Shown here: positions 6,057-26,993 of the stretch, piece by piece | Numbering within the stretch: position 1 is the stretch's first letter | How the letters are laid out: every line of letters starts with the position of its first letter | Virus record (IMG/VR): IMGVR_UViG_3300022183_000031 | Coordinates: 1 to 32,141 of that record | Reading direction: 5' to 3' (one strand) | DNA from: a virus | Taxonomy: Duplodnaviria; Caudoviricetes | Length of the DNA stretch: 32,141 bases | Notes under the pieces: generated by a model | The model's input: only the letters and a program-made list of their open reading frames with translations | What the model was told of the DNA's origin: nothing | The model's database searches: none | Made by a program: the position numbers and the translations under genes

Positions 6057-8877
6057 TATAATATCGAGAAATTTTATCACGGGACGGCACAACACCCCGA
6101 CAAGTTTTTTATTGGCTAATCAATCCAATAAAGTAACGGAACAAATAGTTTTCACTGTTTCTTTTAACTATGCGAGTAATTCAAACGAGCTATGTAAAAT
6201 TGTATCTCAAAATTCTGTTCAAGTTTTAGGTTCGTCGTGGTCATCGAAGGGTTTAAATGTAGGTGATTCAATTACAATAAATTTTAGTTATATAGATTCT
6301 GCGGGTAGTCCCGTTGCTTTTAATCAAACTACTACTATCTCATCTATAAATGGTGATACTTTTATTTGTGATTACGATTTTGGAGCTTTTTTAGTAGGCT
6401 CTATTTTCCCTCAACAAGCGGGTAGCATAAACAATAGTATTTTATCTTTTGTAAATAATACGTCTACTAGTCCGGAAACAATAGAATTTTATCATAATTT
6501 AGTTGAAAATAATCAACAAGGTAATAGGTTTTCTTTGTTCGATGGGGAGGTTAACAGATTTGAGATAAAAGGAATTGATTTACTTTCTGTTAGTGATTCC
6601 GTAGACGTGGTTCAACTAGGTAATAAGTCGGGTGGTTCTTACAACTTAGGTACAAATAGATTATCTAGATTGCCAGATGTCGGAATAGAGAAACAATATA
6701 GATTAGATTTAATTTATGATAATTATTTAAAGTTTGATGACAGCGATTTATTAGAACCTCAATGGTATGAACAAAACAATAGTTTAAAGCCTTATTTAGA
6801 GTTCTTTGTATTACCGCAGGACAATAACCCTAATGCAAATTTACAGTTAGTTTTAGATAGTCAACTAGGAAACGTAGGGTGGGTTAATGAAAGTTACAAC
6901 CAAGGGGTTAATGATTTTACAGTTGCAGGTGTTACTTTTACCGATAATTCTGGATCACCTTTAAACACTGTTGACTATACTCAAAGTACAAATATATCGG
7001 TTCAATTAACGAGTGCAAATCCTTTTAATACAAAAATCGAGTTTCAGTTCTTTTTGATACCTAGCCAAGATAGTGTTAAAAATAATATTAACTCTATGGC
7101 TGACAATATCAGTCTAGTAAATGTTTTTTATAATGGTAGTACTGCTTCGATTATTTCAAAGGGATTGAATAACAGAAAAATATCAGTTACAAATGTTAGT
7201 ACCTTTTTAGTTGGAAACTCAATTAATATTGGATTTACTTTAAACCCTACGAGTGAATTTACAAACTACATAGAAAGTTTACCTACGAATGAGCGACTTT
7301 TTGCGATAGATGTTAACGTAGAAAACGCAGGTTTTAACGCAAATAATAATAATGCGGTTGCTTTACGCGTTGCAAGTGGTGAGCTTCAAAAAGCAGATAT
7401 TCCAAATCAACCGTATGATAAAATGACTTTCCAAGGTTTTTTTAATCATGCAAACGAAATCTCTGGGGTTAGCGAAGTTACTTATAACGGTTGCACGGAG
7501 GACGATATGTTATACCACGCAAAATTTAATTTAGAGGAGAATATAGCATGGGAGAGACTTAACTTATCTATTCAAGTTGTACGTAACAGTGATGGTATTT
7601 TCTTTGACTTGTTTAGTAAGTCAATCGGATTTGATGCATACCCAATGGTTAACGGCAAAATTCAGATAAATTTTTTAGAGGCGTTAAATCAATTTTTAGA
7701 AGCCCCAGAAAGAAATAAACTAGAATTAAAGTTAACGGGCAACCATAGTGGTAATTTATACGAGGTTGAGTTAACATGGTCTTTAATGGCTAATTGGAGG
7801 TATTGGATTGCAAATGTAAACGCGTTAAATGACTTTTATGATATTAGTCTACCTAATGACGGAAAGAACAAGGAGTGGATGCGTTATTTGCGTTTAAATG
7901 GTTATTCGTTAAAATTGAATTGTGAATTAGTACGTGATGGTGTTGGTTATTACTTTGGGTCTGGCATAAATTTAAAAGATTATGATGCAAGTTCGGATAT
8001 TGCAACAAATTTTGAGTACTACGATAGCAATGGAAACCAACAAATAGCTTTATTACCTAATGATTTGATGACGGTAAAAGCTATACATACTTTAAATAGC
8101 GGTGCATGGAATCAAAACGATTTGTGGGGTTGGTTAGCTACTAGACCTTTCGAGAGTGAGGAGCGTAAACAAATTAGTACTAAATGGGATTGGACATCTA
8201 ATAATTTGCCATTCAAACCACTAGCGGGAGAGACTAAAGCAAAATTAAGTTTCCCTAGTGCCAACGTGGCCCACGTAGAGGCGTTAATAGACACTAATTT
8301 AATTGGTACTAACTCCACGATAATTGCAAGAATAGAAACGCCCGCAAATCCTAGTTGTATAAGTCCTATCGATTGGCTATTTGATTACTTAGAGGCTAAC
8401 GCGCAAAGTAACAATGATTATTTCCCTTTGTTTGTTAATGCAATGAATGGCACGGATCTAAGTAGTACAAACGTATGTTGTCCGACTTGTACGGTTGAGG
8501 ATAAGGTAAGCGGGACACAATACGAGCTTTACGCAATAGGGCAAAAGTCTGATGTAGATGCGTTGGTTAGTGAATTATCCGGGGATCCTGCTGTTTGTTG
8601 TGTAGATGTTTATAATTTAACGAGTGGGTGTACAGTCAATTTTAAAAAAGACATTGATGATACCACCGCATTAACAGATATAAATTTAGCTAATATACAA
8701 GCGTATATACCTATGCAAATAAACACCTACTCAAACGCCAACGTTTTAAAGTTTAAAGAACGATTAGAAAGTTTAACATCTAGTCAAAATATTAGAGGCA
8801 AGATATGGGATGAGATTTTTGCAAATGGTTTTAGATTTATTTGCACAAATGGAACAAAATTTTTGAGTAGACTATGA
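6046..8877 (+). CDS. Large virion structural protein (tail tip/baseplate, beta-rich) with Cys-rich C-terminal region
   Basis: 943 aa, N/S/T-rich beta-type composition, located within the tail module. Confidence 0.6.
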   Translation: MPINIISRNFITGRHNTPTSFLLANQSNKVTEQIVFTVSFNYASNSNELCKIVSQNSVQVLGSSWSSKGLNVGDSITINFSYIDSAGSPVAFNQTTTISSINGDTFICDYDFGAFLVGSIFPQQAGSINNSILSFVNNTSTSPETIEFYHNLVENNQQGNRFSLFDGEVNRFEIKGIDLLSVSDSVDVVQLGNKSGGSYNLGTNRLSRLPDVGIEKQYRLDLIYDNYLKFDDSDLLEPQWYEQNNSLKPYLEFFVLPQDNNPNANLQLVLDSQLGNVGWVNESYNQGVNDFTVAGVTFTDNSGSPLNTVDYTQSTNISVQLTSANPFNTKIEFQFFLIPSQDSVKNNINSMADNISLVNVFYNGSTASIISKGLNNRKISVTNVSTFLVGNSINIGFTLNPTSEFTNYIESLPTNERLFAIDVNVENAGFNANNNNAVALRVASGELQKADIPNQPYDKMTFQGFFNHANEISGVSEVTYNGCTEDDMLYHAKFNLEENIAWERLNLSIQVVRNSDGIFFDLFSKSIGFDAYPMVNGKIQINFLEALNQFLEAPERNKLELKLTGNHSGNLYEVELTWSLMANWRYWIANVNALNDFYDISLPNDGKNKEWMRYLRLNGYSLKLNCELVRDGVGYYFGSGINLKDYDASSDIATNFEYYDSNGNQQIALLPNDLMTVKAIHTLNSGAWNQNDLWGWLATRPFESEERKQISTKWDWTSNNLPFKPLAGETKAKLSFPSANVAHVEALIDTNLIGTNSTIIARIETPANPSCISPIDWLFDYLEANAQSNNDYFPLFVNAMNGTDLSSTNVCCPTCTVEDKVSGTQYELYAIGQKSDVDALVSELSGDPAVCCVDVYNLTSGCTVNFKKDIDDTTALTDINLANIQAYIPMQINTYSNANVLKFKERLESLTSSQNIRGKIWDEIFANGFRFICTNGTKFLSRL

Positions 8878-14297: not shown

Positions 14298-14330
14298 AAA
14301 AACTTTGCATTAATTTGTAAAGTTTTTTTT
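14298..14330 (+). terminator. Intrinsic terminator ending the late/lysis transcript
   Basis: AAAAACTTTGCA-TTAATT-TGTAAAGTTTTT followed by a T run. Confidence 0.8.
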
Positions 14331-14336
14331 GTTTTT

Positions 14337-14368
14337 GCTTGTTTATTTAAAATAAGTACTTACATTTG
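14337..14368 (+). promoter_or_regulatory. Bacteroidota-type promoter (probable early promoter 1)
   Basis: GCTTGTTTAT at 14337 and the -7 box TACATTTG at 14361. The same 24-nt offset occurs at 17367 and 22380. Confidence 0.8.
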
Positions 14369-14390
14369 TCTAAACGAAATAATTATTATT

Positions 14391-14717
14391 ATGAATAAGA
14401 AAACAACACAAAAGATTCTGGATATACATGAAAGAATCGAATCTATTAAATCGATGTTGCAAATCGAAAAAAGTAATTTGCGAACAGCGAGAGCGATTGA
14501 GTCCATAGAACTCCAAGAGAAAGAAATTAATTGTATTAAATCGTCAATAAGAGCGATTAGTAAATTCGAGTTAATGATAAACAAGTTATCGGTTAACAGA
14601 AGTTATTTGCAGTACAAAAAGCTAACTCTAGAAATGGAGCTAGATGCTAATTATAACCTAAATAAAGAAATACAGATTAAAGCTAAATTAGAATTAATAA
14701 ACGAAATAATAAAATAA
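14391..14717 (+). CDS. Hypothetical early protein (coiled-coil)
   Basis: 108 aa, first gene after the promoter at 14337. Confidence 0.75.
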   Translation: MNKKTTQKILDIHERIESIKSMLQIEKSNLRTARAIESIELQEKEINCIKSSIRAISKFELMINKLSVNRSYLQYKKLTLEMELDANYNLNKEIQIKAKLELINEIIK

Positions 14718-14720
14718 GCC

Positions 14721-14996
14721 ATGAAAAAACTATTTAAAAAACTATTTAAAAAACCAGAAACAAAAAAAGCAAATAGAATAATTAGGTTTTCTAAACCTTT
14801 AGTAAAAAGACAAAACGAAAAGTTTGTTTTAGTAAGTTATGCAACCCCCAACGGAATAAAAAAGAATTTAAAATTTGATGACTTTTCAGACGCTGAATAT
14901 ATTGGAATGACTGGAATTTATTACACTTTTTTATTTAGAGGTGTACACGAACAAGATGCTCCGATTATGGGGTATTGCGTATTAAAAAGAAAATAG
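14721..14996 (+). CDS. Hypothetical early protein
   Basis: 91 aa with a basic N-terminus (KKLFKKLFKK). Confidence 0.7.
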   Translation: MKKLFKKLFKKPETKKANRIIRFSKPLVKRQNEKFVLVSYATPNGIKKNLKFDDFSDAEYIGMTGIYYTFLFRGVHEQDAPIMGYCVLKRK

Positions 14997-15004
14997 TATA
15001 TTTG
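14973..15004 (+). promoter_or_regulatory. Bacteroidota-type promoter
   Basis: TTG at the same offset as in the other promoters, TATATTTG at 14997-15004, followed by an AAACGAAA leader. Confidence 0.65.
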
Positions 15005-15046
15005 TATAAACGAAAAAATAATTAATAACAAATAAATAAAAATAAG

Positions 15047-15169
15047 ATGAGAAAAGAAGAAAACAAAAACACAGAAGAACAAAGTAATGGAGAAATGGCA
15101 TTAGGAGTTATCCAAGGTCTAGTAGGACTAGCACTTTTAATTTACGGAATTTATATTTTATTTATATAA
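15047..15169 (+). CDS. Small membrane protein (40 aa, not in the ORF track)
   Basis: MRKEENKNTEEQSNGEMALGVIQGLVGLALLIYGIYILFI*, with a single C-terminal TM and its own promoter. Confidence 0.7.
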   Translation: MRKEENKNTEEQSNGEMALGVIQGLVGLALLIYGIYILFI

Positions 15170-15171
15170 TT

Positions 15172-15423
15172 ATGGAGATAACAAAAGAAAAATTAATCCA
15201 GCTTTATGATGAGATCGACAGCCAACCGTATGTGAAAATAATTTTCTTATTAAAAAAACTAGATTTACACGTGTCCACTGTTAAAGCGATGAAGCGATTA
15301 AACTATATAGGTTTTGAAGATGGCAAACACTTTTGGGTTGACGAAATGACACCAATAGACAAATTTATGATAGAACAAATTAAAAAAGAAATAACAAAAT
15401 TAAATAAAAGAAAAACGAAATGA
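15172..15423 (+). CDS. Hypothetical protein
   Basis: 83 aa with ATGA overlap to the next gene. Confidence 0.7.
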   Translation: MEITKEKLIQLYDEIDSQPYVKIIFLLKKLDLHVSTVKAMKRLNYIGFEDGKHFWVDEMTPIDKFMIEQIKKEITKLNKRKTK

Positions 15424-16016
15424 GTAAAGAGAACCTAGAGCTTTGGAATAAGGTAGAGAAAACAAATCCGAAGTACACAAAGAAAGCAAACGTAAAAGGC
15501 AATAACATTACTTCTATTGCTCCACAGTTTCAAATTATGAACGCTACCGAACATTTTGGAGTATATGGTCAATCTTGGGGGTTTAAGTCTTTAGATTTTG
15601 ACTATTCATTAAAAGACGAAGGATTGGTAAGTTTGAAAGCTGTATTCTTTTTTCCTAAAGGTCAATTTGAGATTATAAACTCAATTAGTATATGGCGAGA
15701 TAACGCAAAAACCAAAATAGATGATAATTTTGCAAAGAAATTAGAAACAGACGCTCTAACCAAAGCGTTATCTAAATTAGGATTTAACGCAGATATTTTC
15801 ATGGGAAAATTTGATGATGTTCGATATGTTGAAGAAATGAAAAAAGAATTTGCCGAACCAATTAAAAAGAAAGTATTAACAGAAAAGCAATTTGATGTAC
15901 TATGTAGTGATAAAGCAACTTTAAAACACGTGATAACCGCTTTAAATGAATATCAAATGTCAGAAGATCAAAGAAAAGTATTAATGCTTAAAAAAGCAGA
16001 CCTAGAAAAAGCATAA
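15420..16016 (+). CDS. Single-strand annealing recombinase, Rad52/Sak-like
   Basis: FGVYGQSWG and AKKLETDALTKALSKLGFNADIF motifs resemble Rad52/Rad22-family phage recombinases. Lies near an SSB-like gene. Confidence 0.7.
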   Translation: MSKENLELWNKVEKTNPKYTKKANVKGNNITSIAPQFQIMNATEHFGVYGQSWGFKSLDFDYSLKDEGLVSLKAVFFFPKGQFEIINSISIWRDNAKTKIDDNFAKKLETDALTKALSKLGFNADIFMGKFDDVRYVEEMKKEFAEPIKKKVLTEKQFDVLCSDKATLKHVITALNEYQMSEDQRKVLMLKKADLEKA

Positions 16017-16019
16017 ATT

Positions 16020-16259
16020 ATGGATTTTTTTAAAGACATGAAAAACGGTAAGCAGTATGCCAATGTTTCGTGTAGCATGAGCGTATATGCCCACCTAGTA
16101 GATAGCAAATTTGTATTAGAAAAAGATTTTAGATTAAACACTATTAAGCAGAAAAACGAATTGCATAGTGAGAGTGAAGTTTTAAAACAATTATACAAAG
16201 AGCAAAGAAAGCTAAACGATAAAATAAGAATTGAAGAACAAAAATTAAATCATAAATAA
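16020..16259 (+). CDS. Hypothetical protein
   Basis: 79 aa within the recombination operon. Confidence 0.65.
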   Translation: MDFFKDMKNGKQYANVSCSMSVYAHLVDSKFVLEKDFRLNTIKQKNELHSESEVLKQLYKEQRKLNDKIRIEEQKLNHK

Positions 16260-16265
16260 ATAAAC

Positions 16266-16553
16266 ATGGAAGTAAAAGGAAAAGTAAAGTTAATCGCAGA
16301 AACTCAAACGTTTGATTCTGGATTTACAAAAAGACAGTTAGTAGTTACAACAGATGAGACGTACCCACAAGATGTAGCAATAGACTTCGTGAAAGACAAA
16401 TGCGACGTTTTAAACGCTTATAAAGCGGGTGATAGTGTTGAAGTAGGTATAAATATACGAGGGAACGAATACAATGGTAAATACTATGTTAGTTTGCAAG
16501 GCTGGAAGATTAGCAAAGCAGAAGCAGAAGCAGAAGAAAATTTACCGTTCTAG
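16266..16553 (+). CDS. DUF3127-family protein, probable single-stranded DNA-binding protein
   Basis: MEVKGKV...FTKRQLVV...YPQ...INIRGNEYNGKYY.SLQGWKI and an acidic C-terminal tip (EENLPF). Confidence 0.85.
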   Translation: MEVKGKVKLIAETQTFDSGFTKRQLVVTTDETYPQDVAIDFVKDKCDVLNAYKAGDSVEVGINIRGNEYNGKYYVSLQGWKISKAEAEAEENLPF

Positions 16554-16568
16554 ACTAAACCAAAAACA

Positions 16569-16598
16569 AGGCGCATCATTAATTTGGTGCGCTTTTTT
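16569..16598 (+). terminator. Intrinsic terminator
   Basis: GCGCATCA-TTAATT-TGGTGCGC-TTTTTT. Confidence 0.85.
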
Positions 16599-16609
16599 AA
16601 AACTAAATT

Positions 16610-16921
16610 ATGAAATATAAAACACGAGATTTGACATTAAAAAAAAGAGAATTTTTACAAGACCAAATTATTGATTACTTGGCAGGTCGAACTTCAAAAA
16701 AAGAAATAAAAATAAAATATGAGAAACGATTTAATGTAACAGATAATAGTTTTTTTTCTACATGGAATTATATAACTGTTGACTATTTTTACATAAATTT
16801 CAAGACAAAAAAAACTGATTTTAATTTAAAAGAAGATAATCTAAGAGGCTTGGGTGAGATGGAAAAAAATTATCAATTACTTAAGTACAAAGATGACTTG
16901 ACAATAAAAGATATAAAATAG
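16610..16921 (+). CDS. Hypothetical basic protein (possibly DNA-binding)
   Basis: 103 aa Lys-rich ORF between two terminators. Confidence 0.65.
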   Translation: MKYKTRDLTLKKREFLQDQIIDYLAGRTSKKEIKIKYEKRFNVTDNSFFSTWNYITVDYFYINFKTKKTDFNLKEDNLRGLGEMEKNYQLLKYKDDLTIKDIK

Positions 16922-16941
16922 ATTACACCAAAAATAACACG

Positions 16942-16974
16942 AGGCGTTTTAACTAGGTTTAAGACGCTTTTTTT
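16942..16974 (+). terminator. Intrinsic terminator
   Basis: GCGTTTTAA...TTAAGACGC followed by T7. Confidence 0.8.
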
Positions 16975-17084
16975 GTTTTCCTATATATTTGTATCATTAT
17001 TTACATTGCGTTCGCTTATACATGCTTAAAATGCGTTTAAGAGCTATTGCGTTGTTAAGATAAAACTAAATACAAGAAAGGTGT

Positions 17085-17362
17085 TGCAAAAAATGCAGTA
17101 ACTGGCAAAAAGTGAAATTCATAAATGCTTGATATTCAATTAGTATGCAAAAATGCAAAAAAATAACTAACATTTAATGTAGTACTTAAAATCAATTCTA
17201 AAAAAAAAATAATGGAAATACGTTTTTTTTATTTTAGAGTGTGTTCTCTATAAGGCTATTATAGGAGGCTATTTTTGCATAATTTTTGCCTAAGCTAGTG
17301 TTTGTAAGGGTTGTAGCAGGTTTTTTTGTTTTTCACTAAAAATATTTTATGTTTTTTTTGCC
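17085..17362. other. Putative replication origin with convergent GCAAAAA iterons
   Basis: GCAAAAA at 17086, 17105, 17147 and 17155, and its inverse TTTTTGC at 17272, 17283 and 17355, flank an A-tract/T-tract centre. This is the largest non-coding gap and lies upstream of the primase-helicase. Confidence 0.6.
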
Positions 17363-17366
17363 TTTA

Positions 17367-17398
17367 GCTTGTTTAATTGAATATTATATTTATATTTG
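17367..17398 (+). promoter_or_regulatory. Bacteroidota-type promoter of the replication operon
   Basis: GCTTGTTTAA at 17367 and TATATTTG at 17391. Confidence 0.8.
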
Positions 17399-17402
17399 CA
17401 AA

Positions 17403-17532
17403 GTAGTTCTACTAATAATACGGATAGGTTAGTAATAAAGAACAAAAAAATTATTTAAAGCCTTTAGGGTTTGATGGTGCCGTATCACTTGAAAACTTTA
17501 AAGGCTTTGTTATTTTTAAAACATTATACGGA
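17403..17532 (+). ncRNA. Structured leader / candidate antisense riboregulator (two hairpins with complementary loops)
   Basis: Hairpin 17457-17508 has the apical loop CCGTAT (17480-17485). ATACGG occurs at 17418-17423 and 17526-17531. Confidence 0.6.
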
Positions 17533-18057: not shown

Positions 18058-20459
18058 GAATTTCGATCTATAAAAATATAAAATCAGTATCACCTCTAAA
18101 AGATACTTCAGCGATTAAAGTGTTAGAAGAAATAAAAAGTGTTAAATACAAAAAGCAGATAGCACAAATTCGAGGAGCAGAAGATAAAGAAACTAAAAAC
18201 TATTTAAAGTCAAGGTTGCCTTATGTTACTTTTGCTGGAACTTTTACAAGCCGTTCAAATGCAAATCTTAGAAAGCATAGCGGTCTTGCTTGTTTAGATT
18301 TTGATAATGTACAAGACGTTGACAATTTAAAAGAAAATATCAACAACGATAAACATACTTTTGCATCTTTCATTTCACCAAGTGGTGAGGGTTTAAAAGT
18401 TTTAATTAAAATTCCTTTAGTAGACAACAATGATGACTACCAAGACTACTACGTTGAGTTAACAAAATATTATAACCAATACCACGAACTAGATTCGTCT
18501 ACCAAAGACATTGCTAGAGCTTGTTACTTATCGCATGATGAGGATCTTTTTATCAATACAGAAAGCGAGTTATTTACGCAAAAGTTTTATAGACCTTTAC
18601 CGATAGAAACTAAGATAATTAATATCCCAATAACTGATGTAAATGAGGTTGCAGAAAGGCTAGAAAAGTGGTTTACAAAAAGATGGACATCAACAAACAG
18701 AAATACTAATTTGCATGCCTATGCAAGGCAAATGAATGCTTTCGGTGTGGATAAGTCCATTTGTGAACAATATCTTTTTAGATATGCCCAAAATGATTTT
18801 AAAGAGCAAGAAATACAGAAACTAATTGATTCGGCGTATCGCTATACTGCTGAATTTAATACAAGGTTTTTTGAGGACACAAAAAAAGTTAAACAGATAA
18901 AAAACATAGCTATTGCAGGTGAATCGATTGAGAAGTTAAAAGACAAAATAACTGATATTGATTTTAGTAAAGTTCAAGAAGAATTCGAACAGCATAAGCA
19001 AGAATTGAAATTAGACGAATTTTGGTTTTACACGGAGAAAGACCAAATAAAATTGGCTACTTATCGATTTTTGCAATACTTAGAGCATCAAAATATATTC
19101 AAATTTTATCCTGACAAAAATAGTGGTACGTTTTTATTTGTTAAAAATGATAAGAATTTTATAAGCATTTTTGAGGAGTCCAAGATAAAGGATTTTGTTT
19201 TAGCAGATTTAAGAGAAAGAGGTAAAATAGATGCGTTTGAGTTAATGGCAAATTCAACGAATTTATTTCAGCAAAACTATCTTTCTATGGTTAGCACAAT
19301 AGATGTAGATTTTAATAAAGATACTGCTGAAACGAGCTACATTTACTATCAAAATGGGGTTGTCAAAACAACTAAAGATAATATTGAGTTACTAGATTAT
19401 AAAGATATTGATAGTTTAGTTTGGAAAAATCAAGTTATTAAAAGAGATATTAAATTAAATAACGAGAGCGACGGTGTTTTTAAATCCTTCATTTGGAAGG
19501 TATCGGGTGAGGATAAAGATAGATACTACACGCTTAAGTCTGTTATTGGCTATCTTATGCATTCGTATCAGAATGAAGCGAAACCAAAGGCGATTATATT
19601 TAACGATGAGATGATTAGTGAGGACGTGCCAAACGGTGGTTCTGGAAAAGGATTAATACATAAGGCGATTGGTCATATTAAAAACGTATGCGTAGAAGAT
19701 GGTAAGAAGTTCGATGCTAAAGGTCAGTTTGCCTACCAGAAAGTCGAAAAAGACACTCAAATTTTCTTAATGGATGACGTGCCTAAGCATTTTAACTTTG
19801 AGAGTCTATTCAGTATTATAACCGAAGGAATGACTATCGAAAAGAAAGGACAACACGCATTTCAGATACCTTTTAAAGATTCGCCAAAAATTTCTATTAC
19901 AACAAATTACACCGTACAAGGTGAGGGAGCAAGTCATGAGAGGAGAGTTTTTGAGGTTGAGATTGCGAATTACTTTAATGAAAATCACACCCCAGAAAAA
20001 GAATTTGGACATCTTTTCTTTGTAAATTGGGATGAGAATGAGTGGCAAAAGTTCGATAACTTTATGACTAGATGCGTTCAGTATTTCTTAAAAAATGGGT
20101 TGGTTGAATCTAATAAAGTAAACCTAGAATTTAGGAAATTTAAGGATGATATGGGCGCAGAATTTATTGAGTTTATGGAATCAAAAAACTTTAATGGTGA
20201 AGCAATAAATAGAAAAGAATTTAGAAACGAATTCAATAGAGAATATCCAAGAGTCGCACAATGGAATACACCACAGAAATTTAATAAAAAGGTAAAGGAA
20301 TATTGCTCTTTTTACAATATGCGTATTGAGGAGGCTAAATACAATGGAGTGGTTTGTTTTTACATTTACGGTGCGAATACTTCTAACAGCGATGTAGCAG
20401 TAGAGGATGAGGATATTTGGGATGAGTTAGAAAGAAAAACGAGTTCAGAATGGAATTAA
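18054..20459 (+). CDS. Primase-helicase (VirE_N/BT4734-like N-terminus, PriCT-like domain, P-loop helicase)
   Basis: LPYVTFAGTF, HSGLACLDFD, SPSGEGLKV and DIARACYLSHD motifs; NRNTNLH; Walker A GGSGKG; FLMDD. Confidence 0.88.
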   Translation: MRISIYKNIKSVSPLKDTSAIKVLEEIKSVKYKKQIAQIRGAEDKETKNYLKSRLPYVTFAGTFTSRSNANLRKHSGLACLDFDNVQDVDNLKENINNDKHTFASFISPSGEGLKVLIKIPLVDNNDDYQDYYVELTKYYNQYHELDSSTKDIARACYLSHDEDLFINTESELFTQKFYRPLPIETKIINIPITDVNEVAERLEKWFTKRWTSTNRNTNLHAYARQMNAFGVDKSICEQYLFRYAQNDFKEQEIQKLIDSAYRYTAEFNTRFFEDTKKVKQIKNIAIAGESIEKLKDKITDIDFSKVQEEFEQHKQELKLDEFWFYTEKDQIKLATYRFLQYLEHQNIFKFYPDKNSGTFLFVKNDKNFISIFEESKIKDFVLADLRERGKIDAFELMANSTNLFQQNYLSMVSTIDVDFNKDTAETSYIYYQNGVVKTTKDNIELLDYKDIDSLVWKNQVIKRDIKLNNESDGVFKSFIWKVSGEDKDRYYTLKSVIGYLMHSYQNEAKPKAIIFNDEMISEDVPNGGSGKGLIHKAIGHIKNVCVEDGKKFDAKGQFAYQKVEKDTQIFLMDDVPKHFNFESLFSIITEGMTIEKKGQHAFQIPFKDSPKISITTNYTVQGEGASHERRVFEVEIANYFNENHTPEKEFGHLFFVNWDENEWQKFDNFMTRCVQYFLKNGLVESNKVNLEFRKFKDDMGAEFIEFMESKNFNGEAINRKEFRNEFNREYPRVAQWNTPQKFNKKVKEYCSFYNMRIEEAKYNGVVCFYIYGANTSNSDVAVEDEDIWDELERKTSSEWN

Positions 20460-22054
20460 GACCGTATCAAAAAGAGTTATTAGACAAAATTAATAACTCG
20501 ACAGAAAAAAGAAACTGCATACAAGCGCCAACCGGTTTTGGTAAGACTGTTTTATTTACGAAGATTATAAACGACTTCGAAGGTAGAGTACTAGTTCTAG
20601 TCAACAGAACGGAGTTAGTTGAACAAACGCTATCTAAAATTGAAAAGAGCGTATTTAAAATAGTAGCTGGGGTTCGTAAAATTGAACTTCAAGACGTCAA
20701 TATTGGCATGGTAGAAACTGTCTATAATAGAATTAAGAAAAACAAAATTAATGTTAACGATTTTGATTTGATTATAACAGATGAGGTACACAATATGCAG
20801 TTTAATAAGATCTACGACGGCTATAAAGGCAAATTATTAGGTTTTACAGCTACACCTATAACAATGAATACGGAAACGTTCTTTATTGAAGATGTGAAGC
20901 ATATTAAACATATTTCATTAGAGAAATGGTACGGGCCTTTAATTTGTGGAGTAAAAATATCGGAGTTAATAGAGCAAGGGTATCTAACACCAATTAAAAA
21001 CTACGTAATACCTAATTCTAATTTAGGTAAGTTAAAGACGGATAAAAGCGGTGAGTTTAGTTCTAAATCTCAAAATGATGTATTTGATAACCAAGCCTCA
21101 ATCGAGTGTTTGTATGATAATTACGAGCATCATTGCAATGGCGAAAAAACAATGGTATTTAACTCAAACACTAAAACCAATAAAGATGCCTATGAATACT
21201 TTTTATCAAATGGAGTTAATTGTAGGAGTTATGATAGCAAGAGCCTAGATGATAGAAAAGAAATTGTCGAGTGGTTTCGGAATACGCCAGATGCGGTTTT
21301 ATTTTCGGTTGGGGTTTTTACTACCGGGTTCGATGTAGATGATGTCCAAAATATAATTCTTAATAGAGCTACTAAAAGCCTATCGCTTTATCATCAAATA
21401 GTGGGCCGTGGAGGTAGAATAACCGATAAGATATTCAAACCTTATTTTAAATTGATAGATTTAGGAGGTAACGTCGATAGATTTGGATCATGGGCGGGGG
21501 ACGTAAATTGGCATCGTAAATACAAAGAACGTGTAAAACAAATTATAGAGAATTATTTTATTTGTCCTAGTTGTCTAGAATTCGTTAAATCAAATCCATG
21601 TAGTGAGTGCGGTGAATTAAAGCCATCGATAAAGGGAGAGACAGCCAAAGAGAAAGTACATCTTGGCATTGCAGTCTCGAGAGAAAAACTACCGATCCCT
21701 ACTCCTAAAATGATGATCGATTTTGGGTTGAGAACTGGAAAAGATATAAACGAGGTAAAAAACGAGGTTGCAGATTATTTGGTTCGAATGATAGCTTATG
21801 ACGGTATGAGTTATGAGAAATATTTAAACAATGCTAAAAAAATAGAGCAAAGGATAGTTAATATAACTACTCCTATTTGGTTCGCACTTCATAGATCAAA
21901 ATTAAAAGGTAATAAGCGTAGAACTATATTAGACTTTAAAAGAAAAGTATACAAAAGAATCGAGAAATATTATGATAAAGAAAAGAGAGGATATTATACA
22001 ACAGAAAATCGTAGTGTGGTTTCGCAACAATTTCAAAGAGGATCTAATTTTTAG
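20450..22054 (+). CDS. Superfamily 2 DEAD/DEAH-box helicase with zinc ribbon
   Basis: LRPYQ, APTGFGKT, DEVH, GFTATP, TTGFDV, QIVGRGGR, CPSC...CSEC. Confidence 0.93.
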   Translation: MELRPYQKELLDKINNSTEKRNCIQAPTGFGKTVLFTKIINDFEGRVLVLVNRTELVEQTLSKIEKSVFKIVAGVRKIELQDVNIGMVETVYNRIKKNKINVNDFDLIITDEVHNMQFNKIYDGYKGKLLGFTATPITMNTETFFIEDVKHIKHISLEKWYGPLICGVKISELIEQGYLTPIKNYVIPNSNLGKLKTDKSGEFSSKSQNDVFDNQASIECLYDNYEHHCNGEKTMVFNSNTKTNKDAYEYFLSNGVNCRSYDSKSLDDRKEIVEWFRNTPDAVLFSVGVFTTGFDVDDVQNIILNRATKSLSLYHQIVGRGGRITDKIFKPYFKLIDLGGNVDRFGSWAGDVNWHRKYKERVKQIIENYFICPSCLEFVKSNPCSECGELKPSIKGETAKEKVHLGIAVSREKLPIPTPKMMIDFGLRTGKDINEVKNEVADYLVRMIAYDGMSYEKYLNNAKKIEQRIVNITTPIWFALHRSKLKGNKRRTILDFKRKVYKRIEKYYDKEKRGYYTTENRSVVSQQFQRGSNF

Positions 22055-22283
22055 CGTACCGAACGAGCGAACGAGTGGGTGGAATAAGATGATCGCTATT
22101 GGTATGTTGCCGGGTGTAAGTGATTTGATAGTTGTACAACCTGATAGAGTTATGTTCGTAGAGGTAAAAGATTATAAGGGATTGCAAAGACCGAATCAAA
22201 TTATATTCGAGCAAAAAGTAAAGGCATTGGGGTACGATTATCACTTAGTGCGTAGCTTAGATGATTTTAAACGAATTTTTTAA
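21972..22283 (+). CDS. VRR-NUC nuclease (probable Holliday junction resolvase)
   Basis: E..IQ, FSVPNE, G...GVSDL, FVEVK...G.Q...Q motifs. Confidence 0.9.
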   Translation: MIKKREDIIQQKIVVWFRNNFKEDLIFSVPNERTSGWNKMIAIGMLPGVSDLIVVQPDRVMFVEVKDYKGLQRPNQIIFEQKVKALGYDYHLVRSLDDFKRIF

Positions 22284-22284
22284 C

Positions 22285-22372
22285 TATATTTGCTACAACC
22301 TTTTTTCATAATTTAGGTTTATTTCGTTTTAGGTTTAAAATGCGGTTAATTAATTTTAATCGCTTTTTTTTT
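22285..22372 (+). ncRNA. Candidate small RNA (promoter box at 22285, ~75-nt transcript, terminator) antisense to early-gene translation starts
   Basis: TATATTTG at 22285-22292; body contains TTTTTTCATAATTTAG and TTATTTCGTTT; terminator at 22342-22372; no plus-strand ORF. Confidence 0.6.
22342..22372 (+). terminator. Intrinsic terminator
   Basis: GCGGTTAA-TTAATT-TTAATCGC-T9. Confidence 0.85.
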
Positions 22373-22379
22373 ATTTTAC

Positions 22380-22411
22380 GCTTGTTTATTTGAATTAAAT
22401 AGTTATATTTG
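22380..22411 (+). promoter_or_regulatory. Bacteroidota-type promoter (probable early)
   Basis: GCTTGTTTAT at 22380, TATATTTG at 22404, then an AAACGAAA leader. Confidence 0.8.
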
Positions 22412-22433
22412 CACAAACGAAAAATTAATTATT

Positions 22434-22778
22434 ATGAAAGGAATTAAACAAATAAACACTTGCACCAGTTACTGCGCTTGTGGTGGATGTTTTGAACAAG
22501 TTCAAGATAGTAGCTTTAACTTAGATAAGCTGGAAAAGAATCAAGACTTTGAATATTTTATACCAGTAACTGATGAGCATCATATACATTTTGATTTTGA
22601 GCTAGTAGATAAAGAGGTTACACTAGTTAAATCTGAATACAAAGACGAACCATACGAATTAACAGAATCTAGTTTAAAGGCTTTGATTAAAAAAGTAGAG
22701 CAAAACAGTGAGTTTGAATTTGAGGACAGCGACTTTGTTAGCGATTGGAAACAGTTCGGAATGACTGGAACTTTATAA
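22434..22778 (+). CDS. Acidic hypothetical protein with N-terminal Cys cluster
   Basis: 114 aa containing CTSYCACGGC. Confidence 0.7.
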   Translation: MKGIKQINTCTSYCACGGCFEQVQDSSFNLDKLEKNQDFEYFIPVTDEHHIHFDFELVDKEVTLVKSEYKDEPYELTESSLKALIKKVEQNSEFEFEDSDFVSDWKQFGMTGTL

Positions 22779-22787
22779 AAAAACAAA

Positions 22788-23054
22788 ATGAAAAATTTAT
22801 TATTCATAATCATAGTAGTAGGAGTTTCAACGTTACTCGGTTATCTTTGGTGCTACAATACAGTAGAACCGATATACGTTGAAAAGCCTTGTATTGAAAA
22901 CTATGAGCAAAAACGAATAGAAAACTTAGACAAATTAAACTTTGAAATTAAACGTCAAGAGATGCTAGATGTTTACGAGGGTGTAAGAGGATTTGACAAG
23001 CAATACCAATTTTGGGATACTTTATCCTTTATTTTAGTAGAAGAACAATTTTAA
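22788..23054 (+). CDS. Membrane-anchored hypothetical protein
   Basis: 88 aa with an N-terminal hydrophobic helix. Confidence 0.7.
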   Translation: MKNLLFIIIVVGVSTLLGYLWCYNTVEPIYVEKPCIENYEQKRIENLDKLNFEIKRQEMLDVYEGVRGFDKQYQFWDTLSFILVEEQF

Positions 23055-23064
23055 TAAAAATACA

Positions 23065-23319
23065 ATGAATTTAAACAAAGAAAAAAAGCAAATGAATAAA
23101 CTACCTGAATGGTTACAAAAACTACGGCAAATAAGTCCTATGTTAGCCAGACAAGCTGAAACCGATTATATAGACCTTAAAAAGCAAATAGAACAGTTAA
23201 GGGTTGAAGAAGAAACAACCACTTGGGATGCGTTTTTAGAAGAAGTTAGAAAAAAGTGGGGCGAAAGTGATAGCGCCGAATTTGACGAATGGCTATATGG
23301 TCAATTAAATGAAGCTTAA
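23065..23319 (+). CDS. Hypothetical protein
   Basis: 84 aa; an alternative start exists at 23092. Confidence 0.65.
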   Translation: MNLNKEKKQMNKLPEWLQKLRQISPMLARQAETDYIDLKKQIEQLRVEEETTTWDAFLEEVRKKWGESDSAEFDEWLYGQLNEA

Positions 23320-23367
23320 AACTTAACTATGTTTTAATTTTTTAGTTACATTTGTACAAATTTTAAC

Positions 23368-23997
23368 ATGGATTTGACGAAAATAATTAACTCGCTGAAA
23401 GGATCGAAGTGGTATTTGATACTAGCAGTTTTTATAGGTTACTTTTTGTATTTATTTAAAAAACCAGTAGAAACCATAATGGAACTAGGCACGGAAAAGT
23501 ACTTAAAAGAAGTGCCAAAAAGAGTAAATAGAGACGTTATAGTCAACGAACTATTAGAGGAGCTTATGAATATTTGTGGAGCTAATAGAGCTTATATATT
23601 TAGGTTTCACAATGGGCAAAACTACTTCGATGGAACGCACAAGTTAAGAATGAGTTGTGAGTATGAAGTAGTGGGTAAAGGAATAGAACCACAAGCTAAA
23701 TTCTTAAAAGACATACCGACCTCACTTTATCCTAAATTTATTGCAGAAGTAGTCGATGGAACAATGCGTTACGAGGATGTAAGAGATATTAAAGACGCTA
23801 CAACTAGAGTGACGTTAAAAGAGCAAGGGATTTATTCTATTGCAGTAGCACCGTACTTTGATAAAAACGACAATTTAATAGCAATGATTGGAGTAGACTA
23901 CGTAGGTAGAAAAGCAAATAAAGATTGTATTTTAGAAAAACAAATATTTCAAAAAGAGGTTAACTCTATCGGTGAGGCCATGGTGAACAAGTTATAA
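23368..23997 (+). CDS. Membrane-anchored GAF-domain protein
   Basis: N-terminal TM (WYLILAVFIGYFLYLF), then a GAF-like pattern (GANRAYIFRFHNG...YEVV...L..QGIYSIAVAPYF....LIAMIGVDY). Own -7 box TACATTTG at 23347. Confidence 0.75.
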   Translation: MDLTKIINSLKGSKWYLILAVFIGYFLYLFKKPVETIMELGTEKYLKEVPKRVNRDVIVNELLEELMNICGANRAYIFRFHNGQNYFDGTHKLRMSCEYEVVGKGIEPQAKFLKDIPTSLYPKFIAEVVDGTMRYEDVRDIKDATTRVTLKEQGIYSIAVAPYFDKNDNLIAMIGVDYVGRKANKDCILEKQIFQKEVNSIGEAMVNKL

Positions 23998-24533: not shown

Positions 24534-25773
24534 AATAAATGATAAGTTTAAAACATTATTTGAGCAACCCAAAGACGTACGTTACTACGTTATTGTTGGA
24601 GGCAGGGGTTCTGGCAAATCGTTCGGCGTTGGTACGTGGGCCTGCTTAAAAACGTTTGAAAAAAATTGTCGAATATTATATACCCGTTATACTTTAACAT
24701 CTGCACACATATCAATTATTCCAGAATTTAATGAGAAGATAGAAATACTTAATGCAGATTCTAAATTTCATATAACAAAATCGGAGATAATAAATAAAGA
24801 TACTTCAAGTGATATTTTATTTAAAGGAATTAAAACCTCAAGTGGTAACCAAACAGCAAATCTAAAATCTTTGCAGGGGGTATCTGTTTGGATATTAGAC
24901 GAGGCCGAGGAGTTGGAAGATGAGAAAACCTTTGATAAAATAGACTTATCAATACGATCAAAAGATTCCCAAAACATTGTAATATTAATACTTAACCCAA
25001 CACTTAAAGAGCATTGGATATATCAAAGATTCTTTAATGACAAAGGAGTAGATGATGGATTTAACGGAGTAGTAGATAACGTTTGTTATATTCATACGAC
25101 CTACCTAGATAATTTAGATAACCTATCCGACAGCTTTTTAAATAATGTTGAAAATATTAAATTGAAAGATCCCGATAAGTACAACCATGAGATACTAGGA
25201 GGTTGGTTAGAACATTTAGATGGTGTTTTATTTGTTAAAAAAGAACTAAACTATTATAAAGGTGATTTAAAAGACTACGAAGCAAGCGCAGGGTTTGTCG
25301 ATATTGCAGACACGGGAGAGGATTACCATTCTGTTCCAATAGGAAAGATAATAAATGATAAAATTTACATTGACGATGTTTTATTTACTAAGCAAGGCAC
25401 GGAGTATAATGTAGAATTAACTGCTGAGATAGTAAACAAACATAAATTAGATATATTAAGAATAGAGAGCAATATGGGCGGTTCGATGTACCAACAATTA
25501 TTGCAACCTTTATTAAATAATGCGACTCAAGTACAACCTATCAGGGCAAAGACTAAAAAACACACTAGAATAACTACTATGGCAGGCTTTATTAAGTCCT
25601 TTTGTGTGTTTAGATCAGATTACGAGCATGGAAGCGACTATGACTTATTTATGCGCAATTTAACGCAATATTTGAAAGATGGAACGAGTAAACACGACGA
25701 CGCACCAGATAGTTTGGAGGGATTATGTAAATTATTTAGAGTATATTACCCACACATTTGGGATAATGTTTAA
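24526..25773 (+). CDS. terL: Terminase large subunit (PBSX-like)
   Basis: Walker A GGRGSGKS, Walker B WILDEAEE, LNP motif, and nuclease motif HDDAPDSL. Confidence 0.95.
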   Translation: MIEINDKFKTLFEQPKDVRYYVIVGGRGSGKSFGVGTWACLKTFEKNCRILYTRYTLTSAHISIIPEFNEKIEILNADSKFHITKSEIINKDTSSDILFKGIKTSSGNQTANLKSLQGVSVWILDEAEELEDEKTFDKIDLSIRSKDSQNIVILILNPTLKEHWIYQRFFNDKGVDDGFNGVVDNVCYIHTTYLDNLDNLSDSFLNNVENIKLKDPDKYNHEILGGWLEHLDGVLFVKKELNYYKGDLKDYEASAGFVDIADTGEDYHSVPIGKIINDKIYIDDVLFTKQGTEYNVELTAEIVNKHKLDILRIESNMGGSMYQQLLQPLLNNATQVQPIRAKTKKHTRITTMAGFIKSFCVFRSDYEHGSDYDLFMRNLTQYLKDGTSKHDDAPDSLEGLCKLFRVYYPHIWDNV

Positions 25774-26993
25774 AAGTGAATTATCTCTTTCAACTCATCA
25801 TCAGTGTAAAGTCCTAGATCTTTTAGCTTTGCCATTGCATTAGCCTTCTTTTCCAAGATTTCTGATTTCTCTTTATCGCCTTGTTGCAATAGCTTAATGT
25901 GGCTAAAATCTCTCTCGAGCCATTCGCCTTTTTTAGTAAGTCCGAATATTTCTGCATATCTATTTGCTATCTCTTGACCTTGAGGTATAACAGTACTTTG
26001 GTATGCTTGGAATAGGCCCTCCTCTAAGTTGTTAAATGTAGAGGCCTTTTCTTTGCTAAATAGATTATCGTTTAGCCCAAAGTGGTCAATAATGCGCTTA
26101 AAATTGCTTTCAACCTCCTCAAACAACATTAAATCCTTTGTAGGGAATGACATCGATTGCCACTCTAAGGAAGCGTTCGACATAATCACTTGCATTTGCT
26201 TATTGTCTATCCCGTAATCTTTTTGATATTGCTTCTCTAATCGCTCTCTTTCATTCTTAGTTAACCCGATAGAGTTTTCAGAGTTGCTGGCTTTATTTGA
26301 TAATATACCCAACGCGCCTCTTTTGTTCATAATCACGTTTCTAAATTGATAAGCTGATCTAATATTACTTATCTCCATGTATAACGGTCTTAAAGGACTT
26401 TCACCTTTTATACCGTTTTTTACAGCGTTAACTTTTGTGTGATTAATACAATTAGTTTCTATTTTTTCGATAGAGCTACTACCATTTTGTAGTTCGTAGT
26501 ATTCGATAATATCTTCAATTTTGGATTGCTTATAAGATTTACCGGTTAATTGAATACCTATCTCCGAGGGATTTAAGTTAGTTAACCCGTCCGGTATCTC
26601 TTGGTTATCAAAGGCTTTAAGCATATATTCGTAATTATTACCGTAAATACTTAAATTAGTTACGGCTTGAATTATATGTTGGTTACCCTTCATTAATGGA
26701 TTTGGATTCTCTAGCAAATTAATAACGTCGCTATTTTTAACCTCTTGGCTTTCGCCGTTAACTAACTTGTAATGCCTCCAAGTCCCACTAGCTTGTAAAT
26801 GTGCTAATCTATTAATAACGGCGTAAACCTCGGCAGTTGTCATGTAGATATTAAAAGCGTTCCAAGTATCTGGATTTAAAAATTCGGGTTGACCGCTTAA
26901 GATATAGTTGTTACTAGGTATCTTTGGTGTATTATAATAATCGTTACCTCGGTTAAATAGGTTAAAAAAATCTTTGAACGGTTTAAATTCCAT
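25770..26993 (-). CDS. Portal protein (HK97-family), on the opposite strand
   Basis: 407 aa with LLENPNPLM, GNNY, GESPL, GALGIL and TFNNLEE motifs. Located between TerL and the protease gene. Confidence 0.9.
   Translation of the reverse strand: MEFKPFKDFFNLFNRGNDYYNTPKIPSNNYILSGQPEFLNPDTWNAFNIYMTTAEVYAVINRLAHLQASGTWRHYKLVNGESQEVKNSDVINLLENPNPLMKGNQHIIQAVTNLSIYGNNYEYMLKAFDNQEIPDGLTNLNPSEIGIQLTGKSYKQSKIEDIIEYYELQNGSSSIEKIETNCINHTKVNAVKNGIKGESPLRPLYMEISNIRSAYQFRNVIMNKRGALGILSNKASNSENSIGLTKNERERLEKQYQKDYGIDNKQMQVIMSNASLEWQSMSFPTKDLMLFEEVESNFKRIIDHFGLNDNLFSKEKASTFNNLEEGLFQAYQSTVIPQGQEIANRYAEIFGLTKKGEWLERDFSHIKLLQQGDKEKSEILEKKANAMAKLKDLGLYTDDELKEIIHF

Follow-up and report, generated by a model that had tools for sequence, protein, structure and literature searches.

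The window analysed here, all 32,141 nucleotides of IMG/VR record IMGVR_UViG_3300022183_000031, encodes a Flavobacteriia-type siphophage according to domain annotation, with HK97-type capsid, terminase, portal, tape measure, holin, amidase, ssb, primase, helicase, and VRR-NUC nuclease genes. Among cultured phages, it comes closest to those of Flavobacterium and Cellulophaga (~33–36% identity), and its host is likely a Flavobacteria-type bacterium. A metagenomic contig of the identical phage (L482) carries a terminal overlap, so the 32-kb genome is probably circular and complete.

Two nucleotides past the VRR-NUC stop codon begins a compact unit (22285–22372) consisting of a Bacteroidota -7 promoter box, a 39-nt core, and an intrinsic terminator (Table 1). 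The original prediction, a phage small RNA antisense to the leaders and start codons of early genes, had been built on this box, this terminator, and a plus strand free of ORFs between them, and all three were found where it had placed them. The box at 22285 has no -33 TTG, as is also the case for the promoters at 23347, 24007, and 27035; the early promoters at 14361, 14997, 17391, and 22404 follow the pattern TTG-N19-TAnnTTTG. Given the spacing of 4–5 nt between -7 box and transcription start in F. johnsoniae (available text of PMC6847099), the RNA is predicted to start at 22297 or 22298. In the predicted fold, the loop of a weak 5' hairpin exposes seed 1, the anti-start-codon sequence UUUUUCAUAAUUU with its anti-AUG at 22307–22309. 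The terminator stem pairs 22342–22349 with 22356–22363 and is followed by a T run at 22364–22372; the primase-helicase-VRR-NUC transcript probably ends at this same terminator.

Table 1 Features of the predicted sRNA unit and of its predicted target sites in the window
Feature	Position	Strand	Remarks
Gene 14391, 5' end and start codon	14372..14395	+	two seeds, register -19; cofold in top 0.7% of 574 background starts
Gene 14721, leader and start	14699..14729	+	two seeds, register -22; cofold in top 1.2%
Seed-2 motif at predicted 5' end of the 15047 transcript	15008..15015	+	39 nt upstream of ATG
Gene 15420, seed-2 match extending into ATG	15412..15421	+	
Gene 16020, start region	15998..16022	+	predicted target additional to those originally listed; top partner also in L478
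Gene 16610, start	16599..16615	+	13-nt exact match at 16603–16615
VRR-NUC nuclease gene	21972..22283	+	final gene of primase-helicase operon, upstream of the sRNA unit
-7 promoter box TATATTTG	22285..22292	+	consensus from available text of PMC6847099
Predicted sRNA, ~75 nt	22297..22372	+	from -7 box spacing and terminator
Weak 5' hairpin, 5 bp, 13-nt loop exposing seed 1	22297..22319	+	predicted fold
Seed 2, contains CG, complementary to AAACGAAA leader motif	22319..22330	+	single-stranded in predicted fold
Intrinsic terminator, 8-bp stem, 6-nt loop, 9 T	22342..22372	+	predicted fold
Gene 22434, 5' end and start	22415..22439	+	predicted target; adjoins the sRNA downstream

Seven metagenome matches were available for comparison: five relatives (L476, L477, L478, L480, and L481), the same phage (L482), and one unrelated sequence (L479). 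Window and relatives share 75% identity across 19281–22413, and the VRR-NUC gene is the upstream neighbour of the unit also in L001, L476, L477, L478, and L480. The core is identical to that of the relative L001 at 38 of 39 positions, compared with 71 of 152 (47%) four-fold sites in the helicase and VRR-NUC genes (binomial test, 6e-12; 5e-4 if the highest local baseline, 0.77, is used). The -7 box is retained in all relatives though both of its flanks vary, the terminator is modified in L001 and replaced by a wholly different hairpin in L477 with the core intact, and the core likewise remains intact in L001 and L478/L480, where the downstream gene is a different one. Just two core alleles were found, position 22321 being A in the window and T in all relatives. 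Judged from sequence, the unit is conserved in the manner of an RNA module that functions single-stranded. No match to the locus was returned by blastn against GenBank phages, scans for related loci using the helicase or gene 14391 recovered no relative, the seed-1 string was absent from two GAF-gene relatives (L474 and L475), and the matches of a loose two-seed pattern search were largely unrelated. Pattern searches also gave no comparable promoter–anti-AUG–terminator unit in six cultured Flavobacteriia phages, and no exact promoter-plus-seed pattern in 301 Bacteroidota genomes.

Every perfect leader or start-codon match that had been claimed for the unpaired part of the RNA was located in the window. 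The motif AAACGAAATAA lies at 14372 and 14699, AAACGAAA at 15008, 15413, and 22415, and ATTATGAA at 14388 and 22431; AAACGAAA also occurs three times within coding sequence on the plus strand (812, 7452, and 14813). AACGAAA makes up the predicted first transcript bases at three early promoters, with two further copies in internal leaders, and the spacing of the two seeds in the RNA (register -20) is near that of 7 of the 11 leader motifs (-19 to -23). The start of gene 16610 carries an exact complement of 13, 14, 13 or 12 nt across four leader versions, a length of at least 12 nt being reached at 6 of 574 background starts. In L478/L480 this gene has a replacement leader in which a seed-2 match precedes a seed-1 match, amounting to a switch from seed 1 to seed 2. 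Its product is a charged helical protein of 103 aa with six close homologues only; no family was matched, and the structure model is helical, of low confidence, and without a clear fold match; a reading as an HTH regulator found no support. Type I toxin-antitoxin systems combine one small hydrophobic toxin mRNA with a long, near-perfect antisense RNA, and such a system was rejected for gene 16610 on account of its charged 103-aa helical product, the 13-nt match, and the several targets.

Pairing was scored for 38 of the 40 annotated starts, omitting the TTG-start gene 31587 and also gene 29, which lies too close to the edge. Early modules were defined by position (14391–16610 and 22434–23065, 11 genes), leaving 27 other genes, and controls were drawn from six GenBank phages (311 auto-called starts) and from 20 stretches from the phylum of a Sphingobacterium (263 host-like starts), two of these stretches having at least 70% GC. 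With the caveat on all p-values that the locus had been selected for these very matches, early starts paired better than the other starts, both as duplexes (-15.7 vs -11.7 kcal/mol, p = 0.002) and in cofolds with the full RNA (p = 0.009; p = 0.0003 against background), and better than the control-phage (p = 0.003) and host-like starts (p = 0.009). The early leaders also beat the shuffled controls against which the original prediction was to be checked: their longest exact complements sum to 101 over 11 leaders, compared with 82.6 ± 4.3 in dinucleotide shuffles (101 reached in 0 of 500), and their mean duplex energy is -15.4 vs -9.7 ± 0.9 (0 of 300). Neither the early mean nor the gap between early and other genes was equalled in 300 whole-core shuffles, or in 300 shuffles of seed 2 with seed 1 kept; the CG-containing seed, singled out beforehand as the informative part, thus adds pairing beyond that of the anti-AUG seed.

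Five early genes absent from the original list still show the better pairing, in weaker form (p = 0.04), as does a broader 18-gene set running from the lysis end to terminase (p = 0.03); genes 15172, 22788, and 23065 have ordinary scores, and lysis gene 13041 pairs as well as the early genes. Starts matching both seeds number 3 of 38 in the window, 5 of 14 in L478, and 1 of 574 among controls, this one being start 33641 of Cellulophaga phage phi46:1 (L506), where a pattern search found no cognate RNA unit. Among 33 anti-AUG cores, that of the window ranks first on the window's early leaders. The early promoter-leader cassettes are duplicated (14323–14395 vs 22365–22438, 81%), which inflates motif counts, and an RNA descended from an inverted leader would match the sibling leaders without targeting them. 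With two core alleles, covariation rests on one position, 22321, which agrees with the leaders in 3 of 5 cases in the window and 5 of 6 in the relatives (one-sided p ~0.2, not significant); reciprocal core–leader preference was seen in 15 of 19 comparisons (p = 0.03), among leaders that are homologous and non-independent. Computation supports a predicted sRNA gene that is conserved, stands alone, and carries two seeds with a preference for the early leaders of the phage itself.

A class of anti-start-codon RNAs, FopS, is already described in Bacteroidota hosts. As set out in the available text of PMC11697453, FopS comprises 14 paralogous sRNAs of B. thetaiotaomicron, each with a single-stranded 5' seed and a terminator, which prevent translation by pairing over start codons, as established for FopS-10; their targets are host SusC-type/PUL mRNAs, and they are bound by RbpB through their U/A-rich 5' part. 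The same text notes FopS in one phage; a FopS probe was present in 63 viral stretches. Like FopS (RF04319), the window unit combines a sigmaABfr -7 promoter, its box directly preceding a 5' seed that starts UUUUUCAUA, with a single-stranded 5' part, in this case bearing a weak 5-bp hairpin, and an intrinsic terminator within ~70–75 nt, and it is predicted to pair across start codons. The nine-base anti-AUG start is common to it and the FopS R1/R1' seed, the next stretch is similar, and the 3' part of R1' differs. Unlike FopS, which has 12–15 copies per genome, the unit is present once in the 32-kb record of a Flavobacteriia-type phage, has a second, CG-containing seed that matches phage leaders, and has phage early genes as predicted targets. 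RF04319 (gathering threshold 56 bits) gave no match to 22297–22372 even at E ≤ 10; the same model gives 57–82 bits to genuine FopS copies found in viral contigs. By prediction the unit would therefore act in a FopS-like manner, but it is a non-member of RF04319. Rfam returned no match at E ≤ 1 across the whole window, c4 and GibS included, only tRNAs at eight related loci, and no FopS match in L187 and L310.

The 18-nt seed-1 stretch occurs exactly in 62 viral stretches, some of the sites being true gene starts on the opposite strand and many a seed followed by a terminator. A longer seed-1 form was found in at least 122 Sphingobacteriaceae stretches, with several copies per genome, in at least 110 distinct contexts, at least 101 of them with a T run behind. 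This multicopy anti-AUG family shares the identical 18-nt stretch and a terminator with the window unit and differs in its 3' half, which lacks the CG seed, and in often lying behind tRNAs or other leaders. Multicopy anti-start-codon cores with terminators were seen in Sphingobacteriaceae genomes (L185–L306) and in viral contigs (L124–L183), where the phage members often lie directly behind tRNAs or another conserved hairpin. These had no Rfam match at the loci tested and look like an undescribed FopS-like family, which would extend the range of FopS-like anti-start-codon RNAs beyond Bacteroidaceae, into the genomes of Sphingobacteriaceae and into several groups of phages. In unrelated phage units (L310, L313, and their kin), an identical 13-nt anti-AUG loop sits on a different 5' stem.

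Our preferred reading, to which we assign a probability of roughly 55%, is that the ~75-nt RNA acts in trans, pairs with the leaders and start codons of the phage's own early genes, blocks their translation, and accumulates after the early phase to damp early proteins. For the two-seed shut-off of early genes originally proposed, the conserved unit and the computed early-leader preference speak in favour, while transcription and repression, like pairing in the cell and timing, are steps that we infer. Bacteroidota hosts make do without Shine-Dalgarno pairing and without Hfq (PMC6847099 and PMC11697453, in their available text), and initiation in Flavobacterium is driven by A-rich positions at -3, -6, and ~-13 (PMC6847099, likewise). 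Seed 1 would serve as a general FopS-like anti-start-codon seed, and seed 2 (anti-AAACGAAA) as the address conferring early-gene preference; the RNA would seed on the AUG region as well as on AAACGAAA at the 5' ends of early mRNAs, and once paired would cover the A-rich initiation positions. With a promoter devoid of the early-type TTG and a terminator shared with the replication operon, it would be expected to build up with or after replication-gene expression, early proteins being damped as late expression begins. Since the terminator also serves the operon, the RNA may alternatively be 3'-UTR-derived, as FopS-14 is (PMC11697453, available text). No integrase or repressor family was matched among the 40 proteins scanned, and a damper acting between the early and late phases of a lytic cycle fits this annotation better than lysogeny control.

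We regard as unlikely, while giving it serious weight, a real FopS-like sRNA directed mainly at host mRNAs (e.g. outer-membrane transporters or defence genes), its match to phage leaders being an inverted-leader relic or a side effect. Such a target range would follow that of FopS, which acts on host SusC-type mRNAs (PMC11697453, available text), and seed 1 is an anti-start-codon sequence general to Bacteroidota, its 18-mer forming the core of the Sphingobacteriaceae family and mirroring true gene starts in other viruses; an exact 17-nt complement of seed 1, however, was found in just 2 of 401 genomes, with one true gene start among four sites. The best duplexes of the window fall within the top 2–7% of background (about 1–9% by cofold), the very best is exceeded by 2.4% of background starts, and no start of the phage itself is an outlier. 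At ranks of only the top 1–7%, host mRNAs may be hit too, and a host genome would contain many comparable sites. Nor do other phage units display self-preference: among 30 distinct anti-AUG units in viral contigs, scored on the genes in the fetched flanks, 16 preferred their own (p = 0.42), the window ranking 3rd of 30 and L162 (identical to L001, which lacks the early region) 15th. What tells against mainly host targets is the specific early-leader pairing that seed 2 contributes (0 of 300 shuffles), together with the absence of two-seed starts (0 of 263) from host-like stretches, an indirect stand-in for the phage's own host.

It is improbable that no regulatory RNA is made and that the core is an inverted early-leader copy lying at the 3' end of the replication operon before an ordinary terminator, or else a DNA-level site. 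The operon requires a terminator anyway, the sequence is AT-rich, the -7 box is without a -33 partner, the two strands of the window together carry 71 copies of TAnnTTTG, and TTTAGGTTT is present twice, 19 nt apart, as would suit the DNA-level variant. Such a copy would not account for a single-stranded stretch conserved at 38 of 39 positions while its terminator is swapped, for a box retained although its flanks change, or for the matching promoter-seed-terminator layout of FopS and other phage units. Very improbable, too, is an RNA that does not repress by pairing and instead acts as a decoy, binding a host RbpB-like RRM protein, or as a sponge that soaks up host anti-AUG regulation: UUUAGGUUU is repeated in the core, and RbpB binds FopS through its U/A-rich 5' part (PMC11697453, available text), but a decoy would have no need of a CG seed that fits the early leaders in register. 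A conserved minus strand, providing a good leader and ATG for a micro-peptide (MKKG...), is scarcely credible and was rejected, as the ORF has 9 codons in the window and 17 in relatives such as L001, residues beyond MKKG are not shared, no minus-strand -7 box was found nearby, and the U-run belongs to the plus strand.

We know of almost nothing about the timing of gene expression in Bacteroidota phages. Extending the own-early-leader reading, we suggest, tentatively, that repressor-less Bacteroidota phages might switch from early to late expression by means of one sRNA joining a host-style anti-start-codon seed to a phage-specific address seed; the address would stand in the opening bases of early transcripts and would have been written anew even ahead of a gene with a replaced leader. 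If true, the regulon would have a repressor consisting of RNA only, and a new early gene would enter it by acquiring eight letters; a 75-nt RNA silencing a set of early genes through a common leader address would make a compact regulon switch and a template for programmable silencing in Bacteroidota.

Among known phage RNAs, c4 is a trans-acting two-seed RNA. As reviewed in the available text of PMC12197685, c4 (P1/P7), sar (P22), OOP (lambda), and the Hfq-dependent PreS and VpdS act on the translation of phage or host mRNAs; unlike the window RNA, they concern one or two lysogeny genes or depend on Hfq, and mirroring of the leaders of many early genes is absent from their description there. 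GibS (RF04182), a 145-nt, host-encoded, metabolic RNA of Bacteroides, likewise uses two seeds (R1 and R2) to pair with translation-initiation regions that lack Shine-Dalgarno sequences (PMC7366714, available text), whereas the window RNA is predicted to be ~75 nt long, is phage-encoded, and has no Rfam match. A Bacteroidota phage sRNA directed at its own early leaders was not found in the literature covered, subscription papers lying outside that coverage.

Several further features of the genome were observed. The portal gene (25770–26993) is inverted between the terminase and head genes and is the sole clear minus-strand gene. A 610-nt non-coding stretch (16922–17532), with palindromic and T/A-run sequence, a -7 box at 16984 directly behind a terminator, and, near 17310, a 10-nt reverse complement of 22290–22299, is a candidate for a replication origin or a further RNA. 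Downstream of the primase-operon promoter (17400–17520) and of another gene's promoter lie structured leaders with long hairpins, and in L001 two structured leaders (2280–2390 and 6700–6810) resemble one another. Ahead of the terminase region, a gene for a GAF-like membrane-anchored protein (23368–23997) has its own promoter and is 93% identical in L001, and at the position of the window's 70-aa ORF 24021 the relatives carry an ECF-sigma-like gene (L001 8260–8778).
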